The position numbers were made by a program, and so were the translations under genes. The notes below the pieces were generated by a model, which saw only the letters and a program-made list of their open reading frames with translations, was not told the DNA's origin and made no database searches. This document shows positions 370 through 63,909 of a DNA stretch of 64,000 bases, in pieces. The stretch spans positions 63,267 to 127,266 of the forward strand of contig CAWIQP010000006.1 of NCBI GenBank assembly GCA_963838285.1, given 5' to 3'. Each line of letters begins with the position of its first letter. Within the stretch, counting starts at the first letter, position 1. Origin of the DNA: an uncultured Chloroflexia bacterium. Its GTDB lineage: Bacteria > Chloroflexota > Limnocylindria > Limnocylindrales > CSP1-4.

Positions 370-406
370 GAGCGCGTCACCCATGACCTGGGTAGCCGGC
401 TCTTTC

Positions 407-668
407 AGCCAAATGCCGATGGGAATAGCAGGGGGCGAGGCGGCGGTCGCGATCGTCCCGCTCGACCGACCCCGCCCATGGCCAGATTCCGGTGGGGGCG
501 GCACGCGGCCAGGTCGGCCATCGTCGGCACCCTCGGAAACGCCCGGATTCGTACGAACAAGCCCGGTCCGCGGTCTCCGAATGGCCGGCGACGCCGGCTT
601 CGGCACGTCCCGGTCGACCGAACGCGCGTGCAGCCGTCCCCGCGCTACCCGGGCTGGAATCTGGCCAG
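407..668 (-). repeat. copy A of a dispersed element with imperfect terminal inverted repeats (MITE-like or structured-RNA family)
   Basis: On the minus strand it starts CTGGCCAGATTCCAGCCCGGGTAGCGCG (revcomp of 641-668) and ends CTGCTATTCCCATCGGCATTTGGCTGA (revcomp of 405-431). The same two end modules occur at 51797-51998 and 57354-57543. Confidence 0.6.
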
Positions 669-769
669 AATCCCGCGGCGCCCGTCCGCGGCGCCCGGCG
701 CCGCAATCCCGCGCGGCGCCCGTCCGCCCCGCCCCGCGCCGACACGCACCGCTCCCCGCCCCGCGCCGC

Positions 770-3037
770 TCAGTGGCGGAAGTGGCGCACGCCAGTGAGC
801 AGCATCGACGCGCCCGCCTTCTCCGCGGCTTCGATCGCGTCCTTGTCGTGGATCGAGCCGCCGGGCTGAGCGAATGCCGTCACGCCCGCGTCCAGGCAGA
901 CCTGGACCGCGTCGGGGAACGGGTAGAACGCGTCGGAGCCGCACGCGGCGCCTACCAGAGCGTCCGGCCCCTGGAAGGCGATCGCCTTGGCCACCGCCTG
1001 GCGGGCGGCGTCGACGCGGCTGGTCTGCCCGGAGCCCAGGCCAATCTCCATCCCGTCCTTGACCAGCACGATGGCGTTGGAGACGACGCCGCGGCAAAGG
1101 CGCCAGGCGAGATCCAGATCGCGCATCTCGGCGTCGGAGGGCGCACGTGTCGTCGCCAGCTTCCACGTCGACGGGTCGTCCGGGAGAACGTCGGGCGCCG
1201 TGACCAGGACGCCGCCGCCGGCCACTCGGATCGACCCGAGCGGATCCGGCACAGGCGCGGCCACCGCGGAGCCCAGCAGGACATCCTCCAGCAGCCGAAG
1301 GTTCGTCTTCCGGGCCAGGATCGCCAGCGCCTCCGGCGAGTACGACGGGGCCACGATCACTTCCAGGAAGATCGACGCCATAGCCTCCGCGGTGGCGGGA
1401 TCGACTTCGCGGGTCAGCGCCACGACCCCCCCGTAGGCGGAAACCGGATCTCCGGCCAGGGCCGACCGCCACGCCTCCAGCAGTGTCCCTCGCTCCGCCG
1501 CCCCGCACGGGTTGGTGTGCTTGACGATCACGCACGCGGGGCCGCGCAGCTGGCGAGCGGCGGCATCGGCGCCCGACGCGTCCAGTACGTTGTTGTACGA
1601 CAGCGCCTTGCCCTGCAGGATCGTGCCGCCGAGCGCGAACGGCCCGGCCCATTTGCTCGTGCCGGGGCGGCGATAGCGGGCCGCCCGCTGGTGCGGGTTC
1701 TCGCCATAGCGCAGCGTCTCTACCTTCTCCAGGCCCACGACCAGCGTCGGCGGGTACGGGTCGGCGGAGCCCGGGAGACCCGGCTCGTCCGGTAGTTCGA
1801 CGCCGGCCGCGGCCATTCGACCGGGCAGCTCGGCGGCGATTCGCGCGTCGTAGGCGCCGGTGTGGCGGAATGCCTCGACCGCCAGCGCCGAACGCAGACC
1901 CTCCCCCACCCGTCCGTTCTCTTCGAGTTCCTCCAGCACGGCCGAATACCGATCGGGCGAGGTCACGACGGCCACCGACGCGTGGTTCTTGGCCGCCGCC
2001 CGAACCATCGACGGCCCGCCGATGTCGATCTCCTCGACCAGCGAGTCGAACGTGATGCCGGGCTTTTCGGCCGCCGCGGCGAACGGATACAGATTGACCA
2101 CGACGAGATCGAACGGCTCGATGGCGGCCGCGGCGAGCTGCTCGCGATGGCTGGACAGCCGCCGATCGGCCAGGATCCCGCCGTGGACCCGCGGGTGAAG
2201 CGTCTTGACCCGCCCGTCCAGCATCTCCGGGAAGCCCGTGACCGCGGCGACGTCGGTGACCGGCAGGCCGGCCGAGCGCAGCGCCTTCGCCGTGCCGCCG
2301 GTCGACACCAGCTCGAAGCCGAGGCGGACGAGCCCGGCGCCGAACTCGGCCAGGCCGGTCTTGTCGGAGACCGACAGGAGCGCCCGCTTGGGGACAGGCA
2401 TCCACTCGGCCGCCCGGGCGGCGTCGATTCGAACCGTTCGACCGTCCGGCTCGATCGACAGCGCGCCGGCCAGCCACAGCCCCGCCGCCCTCGGCAGCAG
2501 TCGATGCTCGACCGCGTGGATCCGCTCGAAGAGCGTCTCCTCCGTGTCGCCGGAAAGGACGGGCACGGAGTCCTGGACGACGATGGGGCCGCCGTCGAGC
2601 GTGGCGTCGACGAAATGGACGGTCACGCCCGTGACCTTGACCCCGGCCGCCAGGGCGTCGCGCACGGCATGGGCTCCGGGGAACGCCGGCAGCAGCGAAG
2701 GATGGAGGTTCAGCATCCGGCCGGCGAAGGCGGCGAGCATCGCGGGCCCGGTCATGCGCATGTAACCCGCCAGTACGACCAGCTCGGGACCGACGGCCGC
2801 GACCGACTCGGCGAGAACCCGGTCTTCCTCGGCCCGTGCCGCGTCGTCGCCCCGCGGCGCCGCCGGCACGAGGAGCGTCTCGATCCCCTGCTCTACCGCC
2901 CAATCCATGGCGGCGCACGGACGGTCGGCAAAGACCATGACTATCTCGGCGTCGAGCGCCCCACGCGACGCCGCGGCATGAAGAGCACGCAGGTTGCTGC
3001 CGGTTCCAGAAACGCCAACCGCGATCCGATGCGCCAC
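770..3037 (-). CDS. purH: fused PurN-PurH: GAR formyltransferase (aa 1-212) joined in frame to AICAR formyltransferase/IMP cyclohydrolase (aa 213-755)
   Basis: The N-terminal part has PurN motifs (GSGSNL-like GTGSNLRAL, NLHPSLLPAFPG, VTVHFVD). After ...AARAAEW comes MPVPKRALLSVSDKTGL...GGTAKAL...LHPRVHGGIL...FLEVIVAP...AFAQPGGS, which is typical PurH. There is no stop between the two parts; the junction reads TGG ATG at 2399-2404. Confidence 0.85.
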   Translation of the reverse strand: MAHRIAVGVSGTGSNLRALHAAASRGALDAEIVMVFADRPCAAMDWAVEQGIETLLVPAAPRGDDAARAEEDRVLAESVAAVGPELVVLAGYMRMTGPAMLAAFAGRMLNLHPSLLPAFPGAHAVRDALAAGVKVTGVTVHFVDATLDGGPIVVQDSVPVLSGDTEETLFERIHAVEHRLLPRAAGLWLAGALSIEPDGRTVRIDAARAAEWMPVPKRALLSVSDKTGLAEFGAGLVRLGFELVSTGGTAKALRSAGLPVTDVAAVTGFPEMLDGRVKTLHPRVHGGILADRRLSSHREQLAAAAIEPFDLVVVNLYPFAAAAEKPGITFDSLVEEIDIGGPSMVRAAAKNHASVAVVTSPDRYSAVLEELEENGRVGEGLRSALAVEAFRHTGAYDARIAAELPGRMAAAGVELPDEPGLPGSADPYPPTLVVGLEKVETLRYGENPHQRAARYRRPGTSKWAGPFALGGTILQGKALSYNNVLDASGADAAARQLRGPACVIVKHTNPCGAAERGTLLEAWRSALAGDPVSAYGGVVALTREVDPATAEAMASIFLEVIVAPSYSPEALAILARKTNLRLLEDVLLGSAVAAPVPDPLGSIRVAGGGVLVTAPDVLPDDPSTWKLATTRAPSDAEMRDLDLAWRLCRGVVSNAIVLVKDGMEIGLGSGQTSRVDAARQAVAKAIAFQGPDALVGAACGSDAFYPFPDAVQVCLDAGVTAFAQPGGSIHDKDAIEAAEKAGASMLLTGVRHFRH

Positions 3038-3103: not shown

Positions 3104-4231
3104 TCACGACTCCGAATAGCGCGCCCCCGGCGCGTCGATTGCCACGACCTCGCCCACCTCCCAGGCGGTCAGACCGTTCTCCGCCAGGCTGGAAACCGCC
3201 GCGCCGACGCCCCCGGAAGGCACGACGCAGACCATGCCGAGGCCGCCGTTGAAGGTCGACCGCAGCTCGGCGTCCGAGAGTCCGCCCAGCGCACCCATGA
3301 GCCGCATGACCGACGGCATCGGCCAGCGGCCGGGATGAACCCGCGCGGCCAGCCCCTCCGGCAGGACCCGAGGCACGTTGCCGGGCAGTCCGCCGCCCGT
3401 GACATGGGCCACTCCCGCCAGGGGCGCGCCCGCCTCGTCGAGCCGGCGCCGAAGCGCGAGGATCGCCTTCGAGTAGATCCGCGTCGGCGTCAGCAATACC
3501 TCTCCAAGGCTGAGGGGAAGCGTCTCCGCCTCGGGCGCCGTCGCCGGTCCCAGGATCCGCCCGACCAGCTCCGCGTAGCCCTCGCCCAGCGGCACCTCCG
3601 TCTCGGCCAGGATGCGCCGCACGAGCGAGAAGCCGTTGCTGTGCAGGCCCGAAGAGGCGATCCCCACCAGCGCGTCGCCCTCCCGGGCGGCCGTGCCGTC
3701 GAGCAGCCGGTCTCGCTCGACGACCCCGACGCAGAAGCCGGCCATGTCGAACTCGTCGGGCTCCATCAACCCGGGGTGTTCGGCCGTCTCGCCGCCGATG
3801 AGCGAGCAACCGGCCAGCGTGCAGCCGTCGGCTATCGAGGCCACCATCGCCGACACGCGCTCGGGGAATACACGCCCCACGGCGACGTAGTCCAGGAAGA
3901 AGAGCGGCTCCGCCCCGGCGCAGACGAGGTCGTCTGCGCACATCGCCACCAGGTCGTGGCCGACGGTGTCGTATCGGGCCAGCGCCATCGCGATGGCCGT
4001 CTTCGTGCCCACACCGTCCGTGGAGCTGACCAGGACCGGCTCGCGCATGCCCCCGGGCAGGGCCATCGCGGAAGCGAATCCGCCGAGCCCGCCGATCACC
4101 TCCGGCCGGGTCGTGGCCGCCACCGATGCCCGCATCAACTCGACGGCTCGCTCGCCGGCATCGATGTCCACGCCGGCACGGCGGTAGGCGTCCCAAGCGC
4201 CGCCCCGCTTGGCACCCCGAGCGTCACTCAT
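3104..4231 (-). CDS. purM: phosphoribosylformylglycinamidine cyclo-ligase (AIR synthetase)
   Basis: YRRAGVDIDAGE...GGLGGFA...STDGVGTK...GHDLVAMCADDL...FLDY...HVTGGG motifs. Confidence 0.9.
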   Translation of the reverse strand: MSDARGAKRGGAWDAYRRAGVDIDAGERAVELMRASVAATTRPEVIGGLGGFASAMALPGGMREPVLVSSTDGVGTKTAIAMALARYDTVGHDLVAMCADDLVCAGAEPLFFLDYVAVGRVFPERVSAMVASIADGCTLAGCSLIGGETAEHPGLMEPDEFDMAGFCVGVVERDRLLDGTAAREGDALVGIASSGLHSNGFSLVRRILAETEVPLGEGYAELVGRILGPATAPEAETLPLSLGEVLLTPTRIYSKAILALRRRLDEAGAPLAGVAHVTGGGLPGNVPRVLPEGLAARVHPGRWPMPSVMRLMGALGGLSDAELRSTFNGGLGMVCVVPSGGVGAAVSSLAENGLTAWEVGEVVAIDAPGARYSES

Positions 4232-47409: not shown

Positions 47410-50217
<2,808 letters not shown>

Positions 50218-50481: not shown

Positions 50482-51450
50482 CTAGCTCTTTCGCGGCGTC
50501 TGGCGCTCCCAGCGGTGGGCCCGCAGCTTGACTATCAGCTCGGGCGAGAGAGGCCCGGAATCGCTGGCCGCGGTGTTCGACTCCACGTGGCCGGGCTTGC
50601 GCATGCCCGGGATGACCGCGGAAACGTCCGGGTTCGACAGGATGAAGCGCAGGGCCATCTCCGCCAGCGTCATCCCGGCCGGCAGCAGCGGCTTGAGGGC
50701 ATCCGCGCGAGCCACGGACTGAGCGAGGTTCTCAGCACCGAAGTACCTGTTTCGGAAATCCCCCTCCGGCCAGGTTGACCGCAACGTCAGGCTGCCGATC
50801 AGGCTCCCTTCGTCGAACGGGCAGCGGGCGACGACAGCGACGTTGTTTTCGCGGCAGGCGGGGAACAGCTCGTCCTCGGCCGACTGGTCGAAGATGTTGT
50901 AGACCACCTGGACGGAGTCGACCAGCCCCGAGCGGACGGCCGCGATGCCGTTCCACGGCTCCCGGCGGTTGAGGCTGAGCCCGAACGCCCTGATCGAGCC
51001 TTCCCGCTTGAGCTCCGCGACCGTCTGCTTCAGCTCGCCGCTGGTCAGCCAGTTGTCGTCCCAGACGTGGAGCTGGAGGAGGTCGATCGTGTCGACGCCC
51101 AGATTGGAGCGGCTGATGTCGACGTACTCGCGCACGTACGCGCGCGGGAAGACCTCACCAAAGGGAATGCCCGGACGGCTCGGCCACTCTCGGTTCCTGG
51201 GAGGGACCTTGGTCGCCGCGATGATGCGCTTGCCTCGATGTCCCGCCAGCAGCAGGCCCAGCATCTGCTCGCTGTGACCGTCGCCGTATGACTGGGCGGT
51301 GTCGAAGAAGCTGACGTCCTTCGATACGGCGAGCTGCAGCGAAGCCATCGATTCCTTGTCGTTCGAGCCGGTCCACTCGCCCATGCCCCACATGCCGTAG
51401 CCGACTTCCCCGACCTGCCAGCCGAGCCGTCCGAAGGTCCGATGGCGCAT
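50482..51450 (-). CDS. aldo/keto reductase
   Basis: G.G.WG.G......FDTA..YG.G.SE..LG, then the family's catalytic Tyr and Lys context. GAGGAGG precedes the ATG at 51450. Confidence 0.85.
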   Translation of the reverse strand: MRHRTFGRLGWQVGEVGYGMWGMGEWTGSNDKESMASLQLAVSKDVSFFDTAQSYGDGHSEQMLGLLLAGHRGKRIIAATKVPPRNREWPSRPGIPFGEVFPRAYVREYVDISRSNLGVDTIDLLQLHVWDDNWLTSGELKQTVAELKREGSIRAFGLSLNRREPWNGIAAVRSGLVDSVQVVYNIFDQSAEDELFPACRENNVAVVARCPFDEGSLIGSLTLRSTWPEGDFRNRYFGAENLAQSVARADALKPLLPAGMTLAEMALRFILSNPDVSAVIPGMRKPGHVESNTAASDSGPLSPELIVKLRAHRWERQTPRKS

Positions 51451-51592
51451 CGTCAGACACCTCCTCGCGGGCGACCCGCATCGTCAGGCCAGGCCCCGGC
51501 GGGTCCTGTTGGAGGTTAATGGTAGCGCCCTCGGAGGGCCCAAGGGTCCTGCCCGTCGGCCTCATCCGACGGCGTCGGCGGGGTCACGGTTT

Positions 51593-51796
51593 CCTGTCCG
51601 GGCGTCTCCCGACCGCGGCGGTTGCGTGCGCCTTCCTTCCCACCGCCCGTCGTGGCGTGCGCGGTCCTGTCCGGGCGTCTTTCGACCCGCCCGCGGTTGC
51701 GGCCGCCCCTTTCCGCCGCCCGTCGTGGCGTGGCGTCCTGTCCGGGCGGCTCCCGACCCGCCCGCGGTTTGCGGCCGCCCCTTTCCCACCGCCTTC
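51593..51796. repeat. tandem array of a roughly 72-bp GC-rich unit, x2.8, abutting the 5' end of dispersed-element copy C
   Basis: Units start with CCTGTCCGGGCG at 51593, 51666 and 51737, and each contains CGCGGTTGCG...CCGCCCGTCGTGGCGTG. Confidence 0.85.
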
Positions 51797-51998
51797 TTAG
51801 CCAGATGCCGGCCCCTGTAGCACGAGGCGAGGAGGGTAGACTCGACTCGACAGCCCGATAGCCTGATTCGGCTAACCGGCATCGCCGAATCGGCCTCCGT
51901 AGCCCGATTCCCGAGCTCCGGAGCCGTCCGGCCGGCGGCGACGCCGGCCGCCGACCGGAAATGTCGGCCCGGCGCTACGCCCACCGGCATTTGGCTAA
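51797..51998 (+). repeat. copy C of the dispersed element with terminal inverted repeats
   Basis: The 5' end TTAGCCAGATGCCGG is complementary to the 3' end CCGGCATTTGGCTAA in 14 of 15 positions. Internal GTAGC / GCTAC modules are shared with copies A and D. Confidence 0.6.
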
Positions 51999-52231
51999 CT
52001 CAGGGCAGGAACCGTATTCGGCGCGTGGAGTTCCTGCATTCGGGCGGGGTTCCGGCCGCGCGCACGCTGAGGCTCGCCTACAACACCGGTCGCGGCGGCT
52101 GCGCCGATCGCGGTCAGGGCGCGGACGCTGGCGGGCGGGACGCTGCGCCGGGCGCGGACGCTGCGCCGGGCGCGGACGCTGTCGCGGTGACTGCGCCGGT
52201 CGCGCTCGCTCGCCGGTCGCGCTCGCTCGCC

Positions 52232-52267
52232 GGTCGCGGTCGCGGTCGCGGTCGCGGTCGCGGTCCC
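52232..52267. repeat. hexanucleotide microsatellite (GGTCGC)x5 plus one variant unit
   Basis: Read directly at 52232-52261; the next unit is GGTCCC. Confidence 0.9.
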
Positions 52268-52320
52268 GGACTATCCTGGCCGCGTCAGTGCGGCAGTCGG
52301 GCAACCGCGGCCGCTCCTAC

Positions 52321-52368
52321 CCAGCGACCCAGCGACCCAGCGACCCAGCGACCCAGCGACCCAGCGAC
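52321..52368. repeat. octanucleotide microsatellite (CCAGCGAC)x6, ending 10 nt before the yciI-like ATG
   Basis: Six perfect 8-bp units at 52321-52368, followed by CGAGGCAATC ATG. Confidence 0.9.
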
Positions 52369-52378
52369 CGAGGCAATC

Positions 52379-52696
52379 ATGGCCGAGTGGATCTACTTCC
52401 TGCATACGCCCCGCGAGAACTTCGCGGCGACCATGACCGACGAGGAACGGCGGGTCTGGGCCGAGCACTTCGAGCGTCTCCAGCGGCTCCTCGCGCAGGG
52501 CACGCTGATACTGGCCGGCCCCACGCTGGGCAGGATCAACACCGGCATCGCCATCGTCGAAGCGCCGGACGAAGCGGCCGCACGCCGGATCATGGACGAC
52601 GATCCCGCGATCGCGAGCGGCTTCGCCACCGGCGAGCTACGCGGCTTCAACGTATCGCTCTTACGCGGACGCGACCATCCTGACCAGGGGGCCTGA
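52379..52696 (+). CDS. YciI-family protein
   Basis: 105 aa, MAEWIYFLH...ERLQRLLAQGTLILAGPT...AIVEAPDEAAARRIMDDDP. GAGG lies 6 nt upstream. Confidence 0.8.
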   Translation: MAEWIYFLHTPRENFAATMTDEERRVWAEHFERLQRLLAQGTLILAGPTLGRINTGIAIVEAPDEAAARRIMDDDPAIASGFATGELRGFNVSLLRGRDHPDQGA

Positions 52697-56927: not shown

Positions 56928-57020
56928 ATTCTCGCCCCTCGCCGCCAACGTCGCCCGATGCGCCGCCGGGCGCGGGAATCGGCGGCGCTAATCGCGCCAC
57001 GGTGCGGCGTCCGGCAGTGC

Positions 57021-57166
57021 GGCGTCCGGCGTCCGGCAGTGCGGCTCCGGCGTCCGGCGCCATCCGGCAGCGGCCGGCAGGGCGGCTCCGGCGTCCGGCG
57101 CCATCGGGCGGCGTCCGGCGTCCGGCAGTGCGGCTCCGGCGTCCGGCGCCATCCGGCAGCGGCCGG
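57021..57166. repeat. complex GC-rich tandem repeats built on GCGTCCGGC, with a 57-bp block repeated at 89-bp period
   Basis: GGCGTCCGGCGTCCGGCAGTGCGGCTCCGGCGTCCGGCGCCATCCGGCAGCGGCCGG occurs identically at 57021-57077 and 57110-57166. Confidence 0.8.
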
Positions 57167-57353
57167 CGTCCGGCAGTGCGGCGTCCGGCGCCACCCGACG
57201 CCGCCACAACGGTCCGCGACGGCGCCACAAAGGCCCGCGGCGGCGCCACGACAGTCGACGGCGAAGAAGTGTGGCCAGATTCCAGCCAGGGTAGCGCCGG
57301 GCGAAGCCTGGGCGCTGTCCGGCGCCGCCACAACGGTCCGCGCGACGGGATTC

Positions 57354-57543
57354 TGGCCAGATTCCAGCCCGGGTAGCGCGAGGCGAAGCCTGGGCCTCTC
57401 GGAGCGGGCGGAATCGGCCGGAATCACGTTCGCGACGGCCGGCCCACGCTCGATCGAGCGGTCGACGAAGCCTCAAACCGTGCGATCGGCTCCGATCGAG
57501 CCAGAGGTCCCGACCTCGCGCTACACCCATCGGCATATGGCCA
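57354..57543 (+). repeat. copy D of the dispersed element, with an extra tandem copy of its 5' module at 57272-57298
   Basis: Starts TGGCCAGATTCCAGCCCGGGTAGCGCG and ends GCGCTACACCCATCGGCATATGGCCA. The 34 nt at 57347-57380 equal the reverse complement of 641-674. Confidence 0.6.
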
Positions 57544-57774
57544 AGTTCGGCGTGTCTCGGTCACGGCCTGCAGTCGATTCGGCCCAGACCCGATCAGAAC
57601 GAGCGCGGCGCGGCCAGGGGCGCGGTTCACCAGCTGCGGCCGTCCGCGCGCCGCCGCGCGGTGGCCCGTGACTTCGGCCGCGACGCGCCAACGCGGCCCG
57701 CGCGGGGCGAACGCGGTTCCCGACGTTGCCGCGCGCCAGCGCGCCCCGCGCGCAAACGCGGCCCGCGCGCCAAA

Positions 57775-57867
57775 CGCGCCCCGCGCGGCCGGCGCGCCCC
57801 GCGCGGCCGGCGCGCCTGCGTCTCGGCCGCGCGCCTCCGTCTCGGCCGCGCGCCTCCGTCTCGGCCC
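57775..57867. repeat. two adjoining short tandem arrays, 18 bp x2 then 19 bp x3
   Basis: CGCGCCCCGCGCGGCCGG x2 at 57775-57810, then CGCGCCT(G/C)CGTCTCGGCC(G/C) x3 at 57811-57867. They lie just downstream of the mgsA stop. Confidence 0.85.
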
Positions 57868-57898
57868 GCGCGGGCCGTCCCGCGCCGCGCGAACGCGA

Positions 57899-58558: not shown

Positions 58559-60066
58559 TTAGAGCCTGAGAACCAATCGCATTTGGGCAGCGGCGGTGAT
58601 CCGATCAGGCGTTCGGGATGTCGAGCGGCCAGCGGGCAGCTGAACCGGTCCGCGGGCCATGATCCGCGGCCGGACAGGAGTGGTGGAAACGGCAGTGATC
58701 CCGTTGCGACCCGGGTGCCTCGGGTCAGGTGGCCACGGTGGTCGCTGCCGCTGATCGAAGCGAATGGTCCGCATGAGGTTGTGGGCCAGGGCGAACCAGA
58801 GGAGGATCGCTCTGGCCTTGTCTCGCCCCCGGACCCTGAAGCGCTGCAGACCACGATTGCGGGCGATCGCATTGACGCACTCGGCAGTCGCCGCCCGATC
58901 CTTGTAGATCTCCTTCGCCGCCGGCGTACTCATCCGGGTGCGCCAGGAGGCGAGCGCGGGTGAGTCGGATGGGAGCGGCAGATACGGGTCGCGGCTCGGA
59001 TCCTCGGGCGTGCGGACTGGCAAGTAGAGCGTGGTATCGGAGTCGGGGGCGCCGAACTCCTCGATTTCGGTGTTGGCCAGGAAACCGGCGTCTGCGAGCC
59101 AGGCGCCCGATGCGCGGCCATAGCGGCGGCGGAGCTGGCGGACCATCGGCCCGAGCTGGCCCTGGTCGTTGCCGATCGGGGTCAGTCCAGCCCGACGATG
59201 ACCTGGCTGGCCGTGTCTGTTGCAAGCTGGGCGTTGTATGCGGGTCGCCAGCCGCCGTCGGCCATCTTCATGACGCGAGCCTGCGGATCGGTCGTGGAGG
59301 TTCGCGCTTCCGGAGCTGGCTTGCCGCGTTTGGCGTGGCGCTTCTTTGTCGCCTCGATCTCCGGCAGGTGGGCGAGGGCATGGCGAACACGCTCGGCTCG
59401 CTCTCTCGCCGCCCGCTCTCTTGCTGCGGCCACACGTCGTGTGCTCGCCGCCGGGTCGTCGTCGAGTTCGGCTTTGAGCGCAGCCACGTGGGCATCGGCT
59501 TGGGCGAGGAAGCGTTCGAGCCTGTCGCGGCGGCGATAGCTGGCGGCACCTGCCGCAGCTCGAACCCGGACGCCATCTTGGGCAACCGCGGCAAGGGTCA
59601 CGAGGCCATCGGCCAGGAGCGCCGCGACGCTCTCTGTCAGGAGTCGGTCCAGAACGTCGGCATGCTCGACCCGAAAGGCGGCCAGAGTGTGGTAGTTGAT
59701 ACCGACCCCGCCGGCGAGCCAGCGGTATGCGTCGTGCTCGGCACACAATCGGTCGAGCGCTCTGGCCGAGCCGACGCCTTCGAGGGTCGCATACAGCCAC
59801 AACGCCACAAGAATCCGGGGGTCAATGGGTGGCCGTCCCGGATGCCCTTCCACCGCCTTGATCCGTGCATAGAGCGGGCCCAGATCGAGGCCCTCCGCGA
59901 AGGCCCAAACGAGGCGAGCTCGATGGTCGGGGCCAAGGAGGCCATCGAGATCGACCGAGCGAAGTTCGAGCTGGCCCCGGTTCGGGAGTTGGAGCCGAGG
60001 TGCCCCTGCCGCCTCCTCGCGCTCGTCTGGCTCAATGGGCGGAAGATCGAAGAGGCTGTCGTCCAT
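58559..60066 (-). pseudogene. IS5/IS1182-family DDE transposase, frame broken by one missing nucleotide near 59185
   Basis: The N-terminal frame reads ...PIDPRILVALWLYATLEGVGSARALDRLCAEHDAYRWLAGG...NAQLATDTASQVIVGLD*. The C-terminal part continues one frame over as LTPIGNDQGQLGPMVRQL...AWLADAGF...YKDRAATAECVNAIARNRGLQRFRVRG..KARAILLWFALAHNLMR. The span is 1508 nt, which is 3n+2. Confidence 0.7.
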
Positions 60067-60130
60067 GCCGAGAATCGTAGCTGCGATGCGAACCGCCTGG
60101 GAATCCCTTCAGCCGAAAGATTCACAAGCT
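58563..60130 (-). mobile_element. IS5/IS1182-family insertion sequence (about 1.57 kb) with proposed 5-bp target duplication CTTAG
   Basis: One transposase gene fills the element. The ends AGCCTGAGAACC... (58563) and the revcomp of ...GATTCACAAGCT (60130), which is AGCTTGTGAATC, match at 9 of the first 12 positions. CTTAG occurs at 58558-58562 and again at 60131-60135. Confidence 0.65.
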
Positions 60131-63832: not shown

Positions 63833-63909
63833 TGGTGGGCGATACTGGACTCGAACCAGTGACCTCGCGGATGTGAACCGCGCGCTCTAACCAGCTGAGC
63901 TAATCGCCC
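63833..63909 (-). tRNA. tRNA-Val (anticodon CAC), CCA encoded
   Basis: Minus strand: GGGCGAU-UA-GCUC-AGCUGGUUA-GAGC-G-CGCGG-UUCACAU-CCGCG-AGGUC-ACUGG-UUCGAGU-CCAGU-AUCGCCC-A-CCA. All four stems are perfectly paired. Confidence 0.95.

Follow-up and report, generated by a model that had tools for sequence, protein, structure and literature searches.

A clade-restricted family of interspersed palindromic repeats with helically phased arms in Limnocylindria-type Chloroflexota

What kind of element would place the same pair of mutually complementary end modules in several intergenic spacers of one bacterial genome? The question is raised by a 64,000-nt stretch of DNA from an uncultured Chloroflexia bacterium (assembly GCA_963838285.1, contig CAWIQP010000006.1, positions 63,267 to 127,266; hereafter the window), which has about 70% G+C and comes from a Limnocylindria-type genome of the Chloroflexota. 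A first-pass annotation had pointed to three intergenic loci with common end modules, here called copies A, C and D, and had offered two explanations: a transposon resembling a miniature inverted-repeat transposable element (MITE), or a family of small RNAs closed by a long terminal helix. Module searches against shuffled sequence bear out the three loci, all of them intergenic. The 26-nt 5' module GGCCAGATTCCAGCCCGGGTAGCGCG is present at 641-666 (minus strand) and 57355-57380 (plus strand), and with two mismatches at 57273-57298 (plus), where shuffles lead one to expect none; sites of the 3' module occur in all three loci, at 408-423 (minus), 51980-51995 (plus) and 57526-57541 (plus). The 34-nt stretch at 57347-57380 is, as had been stated, the exact reverse complement of 641-674. 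The family is thus genuine: it is dispersed, its terminal modules are inverted and its interiors are not conserved. It is a real clade-restricted interspersed palindromic repeat of bacteria, subject to explicit geometric constraints, and we could not find it described previously, the literature offering analogies only.

The 5' ends and the reverse-complemented 3' ends of the elements fit one consensus without gaps, roughly (A/T)TCnTGCCAnnTGCnAAY-[S-rich 5-6 nt]-TAGCRCGnGGC, and the element therefore consists of two inverted copies of a single motif of ~40 nt. The ungapped inverted alignment to this consensus held for 18 of 18 arms of the first nine elements and then for the 68 arms of 34 elements. 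Family members measure 185-207 bp, of which ~100-125 bp are locus-specific interior; of the blocks that the interiors were thought to share, GAATCGGCC belongs to the inner extension of the arm consensus and not to the interior proper. In most genomes the core of the arm is a near-palindrome, TGCTAAC-N4-6-GTAGCA, while the arms of the window are diverged and non-palindromic (GCCGAT/CCAGCC...GTAGCG). The arms vary by genome, with TGCCGAT...TAGCGCG in the window versus TGCTAAC...TAGCACG in the metagenome-assembled genome (MAG) fen_1079, a pattern that fits gene conversion as well as co-evolution of the arms with a protein acting in trans.

How widely is the family distributed? Exact-pattern scans gave two copies outside the window, in a Limnocylindrales MAG (locus L001) and in a metagenome contig (L115), and the loci around orthologues of iorA gave divergent copies in L150, L171, L145 and L152, where they sit directly downstream of tRNA-Val(CAC), upstream of iorA. 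The iorA gene of the window has relatives with 80-88% amino-acid identity in fen, SPRUCE and MFD MAGs labelled Limnocylindrales or Chloroflexi. A pattern built from both arms returned 29 loci in 185,579 species genomes, all from Chloroflexota of the same clade, with no chance match elsewhere. Single modules are less discriminating: GCCAGATNCCNGCCNNNGTAGC matched at least 113 stretches of genome contigs, L001 being the sole genuine one among the matches listed, and a metagenome scan gave 11 matches, two of them genuine (L115, and L125, which is L001 again), the rest being chance matches in coding sequence. Viral contigs yielded one match to the arm pattern, a chance one in a contig of 41% GC, and the ~7.5 kb over which the source genome was followed beyond the window contain no new copy. 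The repeat family is restricted to Limnocylindria-type Chloroflexota MAGs, within which copy number is uneven, from at least 12 elements in fen_1079 to no hit in four long-read MFD relatives that have the iorA locus. The further copies and the empty sites that the first-pass annotation had proposed to look for in relatives were both found.

The alignment set used below comprises 34 copies from ~14 genomes. About half of the arm columns are fixed in the two-arm pattern, which permits spans of 174-204 nt only; the element at L152 and one at L225 were recovered solely by a hidden Markov model (HMM) of the arm.

The most conspicuous regularity of the family concerns its length. Spans from arm to arm fall into three classes, 174-177, 184-189 and 194-197 nt, with nothing between them within the permitted 174-204, and the lack of other length classes, like the conservation of the pattern-fixed columns, is partly by construction of the search pattern. 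The periodicity is strong (Rayleigh R 0.82 for the whole span and 0.93 for one half; best period 10.3-10.7, p ~ 1e-9, the estimate being broad at 10-11), and not one of 20000 draws from a uniform null reached it. By our own arithmetic the distances between arm centres, ~147, 157 and 168 bp, correspond to 14, 15 and 16 turns of 10.5 bp. The HMM-only element at L225 (3046-3216) is shorter, its arms spanning 171 nt end to end, and lies outside the three classes.

A second constraint is a central octamer, RAGCGTGR, present in 26 of the 34 copies; copies A and C have no clear one. Its distance to one end (d3) is 99-100 nt in 24 of these 26 copies and 89-90 nt in the remaining two, and its distance to the other end (d5) is 86, 97, 107 or 118 nt, that is, it changes in steps of ~10.5 nt. 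With d3 fixed and d5 stepped, all of the length variation lies on one side of the octamer. The length steps fit the geometry of double-stranded DNA.

The third constraint is polarity. The S-rich hexamer of the arm exists in a G-type form (AAY-SGGGG-TAGC) and a C-type or palindromic form (AAY-CCSSG-TAGC), and 29 of 32 elements combine one arm of each (binomial p ~ 1e-6 against 50%, by our estimate). The G-run consequently lies on the same strand in both arms, giving the element a direction; orientation by the hexamer being set by construction, only this 29/32 discordance is informative. The orientation of the octamer agrees with the hexamer polarity in 21 of 27 copies and is flipped in the other six.

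In the window these features are placed as follows.

476-672, plus strand: copy A, full element of ~195 nt, with arms at 479-517 (plus) and 631-670 (minus); two-arm pattern match and arm HMM
403-440, plus strand: extra solo arm beside copy A, in the same direction as 479-517; nhmmer, 20 bits, and alignment
51795-52000, minus strand: copy C, full element of ~206 nt, with arms at 51797-51835 (plus) and 51958-51998 (minus); pattern match and arm HMM
57351-57546, minus strand: copy D, full element of ~196 nt, given on the strand of the octamer and the G-rich hexamer and co-directional with iorA; two-arm match at 57356-57541, arm HMM, octamer with d5 = 97 and d3 = 99
57351-57390, plus strand: iorA-proximal arm of copy D, the 5' module of the first-pass annotation, with the C-type/palindromic hexamer CCCGGG; nhmmer, 31 bits, and the 34-nt identity to 641-674 (minus)
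57505-57544, minus strand: distal arm of copy D, formerly the 3' module, with the G-type hexamer TGGGTG; nhmmer, 24 bits, and hexamer table
57443-57451, minus strand: central octamer of copy D, GAGCGTGG(G), 99 nt from one end
57272-57320, plus strand: extra partial iorA-proximal arm with ~12 nt of inner flank, in direct orientation with 57351-57390; HMM, 16 bits; it sits in a ~21-nt tandem array

Copy A is set between two convergent genes, of which a TPR fragment ends at 280 and a purN-purH fusion at 770; copy C between the divergent genes for an aldo-keto reductase (AKR; 50482-51450, minus) and a YCII protein (52379-52696, plus); copy D between an MGS-like gene and iorA. Copies C and D are thereby upstream of AKR and iorA, respectively. 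Two of the limits drawn earlier have to be revised. The modules assigned to copy A at 407-668 are indeed there, but the true partner of 631-670 is the internal arm at 479-517, a pairing which gives a unit of ~195 nt like that of the other copies, and 403-440 is an extra arm, the counterpart of the extra arm of copy D at 57272-57308. That second arm of copy D, described before as a tandem duplication of the 5' module together with a preceding 19-mer, is real, but no simple duplication of both took place: the 19-mer GCCGCCACAACGGTCCGCG starts at 57200 and 57324, 124 nt apart, the arms are ~80 nt apart, and the 19-mer is a single unit of the local array of ~21-nt repeats. Short tandem repeats were also considered as a part of the element and rejected, the MGS-iorA and YCII-AKR spacers being built of them throughout; such repeats characterise the intergenic DNA of this genome in general. 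According to the arm HMM extra solo arms stand beside five elements, namely A and D in the window and those at L220, L241 and L225; the latter three (3203-3245, 423-463 and 1-28) are in direct orientation, ~50-110 nt from the full element.

Do the complementary ends form a helix? The first-pass annotation had been impressed by a compensating change, TTAGCC/GGCTAA in copy C against TGGCC/GGCCA in copy D. The change is present in both copies, but it belongs to no general pattern across the elements. Complementarity is 0.61 between the two arms of one element versus 0.63 between arms of different elements, and the variable columns of the arm (9, 10, 12, 14, 17, 30 and 34-37), compared over 32 non-redundant copies, pair as expected of shuffled partners, column 4 alone displaying a modest excess. 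Mismatches between arms are G.U and A.C in similar numbers (117 vs 97). Since pairing does not rise above that of shuffled partners, the terminal 'helix' is a by-product of a conserved site that is present twice in inverted orientation. The case carries a general lesson: two copies of a protein site that face each other can produce, as an artefact, what looks like a convincing terminal helix with a compensatory change.

These results bear directly on the idea that the family represents a non-coding RNA of ~190 nt, or else single-stranded DNA hairpins of the kind formed by integron attC sites or by hairpins of paired repetitive extragenic palindromic sequences (REPINs), with an irregular arm helix, a conserved G.G internal loop and a locus-specific interior. 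Single copies do fold strongly (z = -4.4 for D and -5.9 for C), and the retention of locus-specific interiors between orthologues resembles the behaviour of a gene family. The S-rich hexamers are, moreover, systematically non-complementary on one strand. The attC sites of integrons have an unpaired central spacer that makes sense only for a folded single strand, and the non-complementarity of the hexamers is similar to it. Against this stand the lack of covariation and of any enrichment of G.U over A.C, and the equality of the mean folding energy on both strands (-94.5 vs -92.1 kcal/mol); folds of 24 copies on both strands gave no common interior structure and no consistent structural context for the octamer. 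The element ends have no conserved promoter or terminator, and orientation relative to the flanking genes is mixed, about seven loci being co-directional with both flanks and six antisense to both. At gathering thresholds Rfam matched only tRNA-Val; the elements of L221, L238 and L229 had no match at E<=1, and the best on copy D (E = 1.1) was far below gathering, so the earlier impression that no named RNA family is involved holds. A length step of ~10.5 nt has no obvious meaning for RNA either. The small RNA closed by a long helix thus finds no backing in covariation, in strand preference or in orientation, and we consider an RNA or single-stranded hairpin decidedly improbable.

What the arms do not have as a helix they may well have as binding sites. 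Arms that do not covary, an interior free to change, spacing by integral turns and a third site at a fixed distance are together what a nucleoprotein complex on double-stranded DNA predicts. The explanation that we tentatively favour, as a good possibility rather than a probability, is that of a non-autonomous DNA module derived from a mobile element, the arms of which are synapsed by a putative trans-acting protein. On this view a single sequence-specific DNA-binding protein would recognise the arms and join them over a tight loop of ~14-16 helical turns with the octamer near its apex; the most plausible candidates for it are a transposase or a recombinase with its gene elsewhere in the genome. 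Assembly would be possible only with both arms on the same face of the helix, a requirement that would account for quantised lengths alongside an unconstrained interior sequence. The family would have spread as a non-autonomous mobile element, with an origin like that of MITEs or repetitive extragenic palindromic (REP) sequences and with constraints like those on the internal eliminated sequences (IESs) of ciliates, and would now be mostly sedentary, with occasional gain, loss and local duplication of arms. The architecture is read directly from the alignments; from it we infer the action of the complex.

The evolutionary record is in part what one expects of such an element. The YCII-AKR spacer that houses copy C is 928 bp long in the window; five relatives have 114-119 bp there and another four 218-586 bp, and none of the nine has an arm match. 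The junction of tRNA-Val and iorA is occupied by an element in the window and at L150, L171, L145 and L152, and empty in at least three genomes, those of L179, L139 and L135. The comparison with MITEs made at the outset holds as far as it concerns size and form, non-coding intergenic location, imperfect terminal inverted repeats of ~40 bp, patchy presence between related genomes with uneven copy number, and the breaking of contigs at copies of the family. It fails for target-site duplications, for the interiors, which are unrelated within a genome, and for the keeping of orthologous copies across species; and MITEs have no counterpart of the central octamer or of the ~10.5-bp length quanta. 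An autonomous, transposase-bearing partner was not seen in the 1.64 Mb collected.

Several of these observations weigh against our preferred reading as well. No short direct repeat abuts the arms in the flanks of the 34 copies, so the target-site duplications that had been looked for are nowhere visible; L152 and L001 do have long repeats in their flanks, at an offset from the arms, and the spacers of the window genome are rich in tandem repeats anyway. Local-alignment scores between interiors are at background among A, C and D and among the 12 copies of fen_1079, and in either orientation no interior homology was found beyond orthologues; without interior similarity inside a genome there has been no recent replicative burst. 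Across 1.64 Mb of collected sequence the arm HMM found no pair of arms wider apart than one element, and no autonomous partner was seen there. No protein partner was found in the window, whose sole transposase belongs to an unrelated insertion sequence (IS) with different terminal repeats. The polarity of the hexamers is not accounted for by simple symmetric binding. Ascertainment is a further concern, 26 of the 34 copies stemming from loci returned by a pattern with fixed columns and the limited range of spans. Finally, orthologous loci (L217/L230, L224/L237/L223, L171/L145) keep interior similarity and the same orientation, and in two of three such groups conservation is somewhat higher in the element than in the flanks; this retention across species suggests that the copies serve a function where they stand and are not purely selfish.

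Could the family, then, be a regulatory or architectural module of the host? In that case a DNA-binding protein specific to Limnocylindria would use the arms as a pair of operators, looping 14-16 turns of DNA in the manner of GalR/HU, with an architectural protein or a promoter element at the octamer, and would control neighbouring genes or the local structure of the nucleoid. Helical phasing, the fixed distance between octamer and arm and the lack of covariation between arms would all be in keeping with this, as would the conservation of orthologous copies at their loci, stronger in arms and interior than in the flanks, and the position of C and D upstream of AKR and iorA. A site of 40 bp, on the other hand, cannot arise independently at a dozen loci, so that dispersal by duplication would still be needed; copies also lie between convergent genes (A; L224/L237), with no promoter to control, the neighbouring genes in the window have no common function, no sigma-70-like promoter is recognisable in the interiors on reading the sequence, and several close relatives do without the element at the same junctions. 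We regard a pair of operators as unlikely. As a rejected alternative we mention the arm as a promoter in its own right: TTGCCA and TAGCAC are separated by a spacer of 14 nt, and a match to the sigma-54 pattern GG-N10-GC is broken in copy C. Likenesses of the arm to the 5' end of tRNA, the UAGC motif of retron msr, the CIRCE inverted repeat and Noc/ParB sites, and of the octamer to the DnaA box, are partial and are not claimed.

The near-palindromic arm core around an S-rich spacer, seen in most genomes, invites another interpretation, in which each arm is a core-type site (inverted 6-7-bp boxes, TGCTAAC/GTAGCA, with a 4-6-bp spacer) and the element a substrate for inversion, as in invertons, or for excision by a tyrosine or serine recombinase. 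Known invertible promoters are of similar size, sites so close together would need phasing, and the octamer is flipped relative to the hexamers in six of 27 copies. The asymmetry of the spacers is direct in 29 of 32 copies, as in excision-competent sites, a circumstance that counts against inversion. No inverted or excised form of C or D occurs in the window, in two ENA assemblies (ERZ25039480 and ERZ25039473), in one JGI contig or in one Logan contig; orthologues share one orientation, the arms of the window are non-palindromic, and no copy there has a recombinase gene beside it. A site-specific recombination substrate looks quite unlikely to us.

Invertons and the gal repressosome likewise place inverted protein sites ~110-200 bp apart in intergenic DNA, need phasing and have an element at the loop centre, in all of which the family is like them; the absence of a flipped form of C and D from the assemblies compared, the lack of a recognisable promoter in the interior and the location of some copies between convergent genes set it apart. 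The attC sites of integrons are built of the pairing boxes R''(RYYYAAC)/R'(GTTRRRY) and L''/L' around the unpaired central spacer, measure 57-141 nt and form arrays next to intI. Like the family, they combine two inverted simple sites with inverse boxes of ~7 bp (...AAC / GT...), non-complementary spacers of 5-6 bp and a variable middle. The differences are that our elements are 185-207 nt long, that their boxes beyond AAC/GTT do not fit RYYYAAC/GTTRRRY and do not covary, that the copies stand singly, dispersed among housekeeping genes with no integrase in the window, and that they have octamer and phasing.

A further candidate is a tail-to-tail dimer of GTAG-type REP sequences, a REPIN-like unit moved on single-stranded DNA by a REP-associated tyrosine (RAYT) transposase of the Y1/HUH type. 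GTAG REPs are stem-loop units of 20-40 bp with an unpaired terminal GTAG tag; they occur in Chloroflexi and join tail to tail into dimers that have GTAG on the inside and a spacer of varying length, 20-100 bp (PMC3733652). The arms of the family have a conserved GTAG that faces inward, their hexamer 'loops' share a same-strand polarity, and the missing target duplication is as expected of HUH enzymes. The wider likeness to REPs and to their assemblies, REPINs and bacterial interspersed mosaic elements (BIMEs), extends to the pairing of short conserved units in inverted orientation around a spacer that varies, to solitary extra units next to dimers and to a preference for positions between co-directional or convergent genes. 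Here, though, GTAG lies within the stem of the palindrome instead of forming an unpaired tag, the arms of the window are not palindromic at all, the unit of ~40 nt has conserved non-palindromic extensions on both sides, the spacer of 100-125 bp is phased in a way that points to double-stranded DNA and contains an octamer, and no RAYT gene was met, though none was sought. A REPIN is in our view a very improbable explanation. As analogies of form, GTAG REP dimers and MITEs are nevertheless the closest that bacteria offer, the family sharing their defining features in part.

The nearest precedent for the length comb is eukaryotic. The lengths of Paramecium IESs recur with a period of 10 bp, for which the helical phasing of transposase bound to the two ends of a short loop of double-stranded DNA is held responsible (PMC3408717); like the family, IESs have conserved ends and unrelated interiors. 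They differ in being bounded by TA, mostly shorter than 150 bp, present in tens of thousands and excised by the domesticated PiggyMac, while for copies C and D excision was observed in none of five assemblies and contigs. There is also a bolder reading, to which we grant a small though appreciable chance: the elements may be substrates of a recombination or excision machine specific to Limnocylindria. They would then be to bacteria what IESs are to ciliates, or else a phased site of three parts for recombination or switching; a dedicated protein would synapse the 40-bp arms over exactly 14, 15 or 16 turns, the octamer would serve as a third site for cleavage, crossover or architecture, and the polarity of the G-runs would set the direction of the reaction. 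The favoured explanation and its rivals overlap in mechanism.

Bacterial repeats such as REP, BIME, MITE, ERIC (enterobacterial repetitive intergenic consensus) and Correia elements are usually described by sequence and hairpin potential. Here three geometric constraints—length classes one turn apart, an octamer at a fixed distance from the arm and a built-in polarity—imply, taken together, that double-stranded DNA bears a defined nucleoprotein complex in an uncultured class of Chloroflexota abundant in peat and soil. If the binding protein were found, the family would provide a compact phased two-site system of looping or recombination and a marker for the genome dynamics of Limnocylindria.

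The surroundings of the copies deserve a few remarks. Immediately outside one arm of copy C there is a perfect 8-bp hairpin, GCAGGAAC-N17-GTTCCTGC, at 52006-52038. The spacers at 56949-57898 and 51451-52378 are inflated to ~930-970 bp by short GC-rich tandem repeats (GGTCGCTG six times, CGCGAC five times and GCCGGACGCC-type units), the copy numbers of which vary between assemblies. The gene neighbouring copy A (770-3037, minus) is a single open reading frame (ORF) of 755 aa with Formyl_trans_N (PurN-like), MGS and AICARFT_IMPCHas (PurH) domains, an apparent fusion of the two folate-dependent purine transformylases, situated within a cluster of purM, purF, purL, purQ, purC and purA.

The interval between tRNA-Val(CAC) and iorA (noted at 63833-63909 of the window and at loci L133-L211) ranges from ~50 bp to ~8 kb among Limnocylindria relatives and contains different genes, in the window those for PD40, AraC-type, YCII, Pyr_redox_2 and MGS proteins; it is a tRNA-linked hypervariable islet. 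The conserved motif GTCCCGTATCATCCGGNCCGGCGG (or GGGTATGATCC) precedes the start of iorA by ~60-90 nt in L135, L139, L142, L146, L150 and L171 and is likely the -10 region of a promoter, and TATAAT comparably precedes tRNA-Val. The clade accordingly uses ordinary sigma-70-like -10 boxes, of which none is seen in the elements.

The window is 99.4-99.8% identical to contig_35612 of ENA assembly ERZ25039480. A 1.57-kb IS at 58563-60130 is missing from that contig; it encodes a DDE_Tnp_1_6 (Pfam) protein (ORF 58559-59800, minus), and a direct repeat of CTTAG flanks it. Its imperfect terminal repeats, AGCYTGWGAAYC, are unrelated to the arms, and its insertion, just upstream of the MGS-like gene, is recent. 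The aconitase gene at 47410-50217, intact in the window with 935 aa, is split into three ORFs in contig_35612 (L126/L245), which has 16 small gaps in 18 kb; both observations suggest uncorrected long-read indel errors in the ENA assembly.

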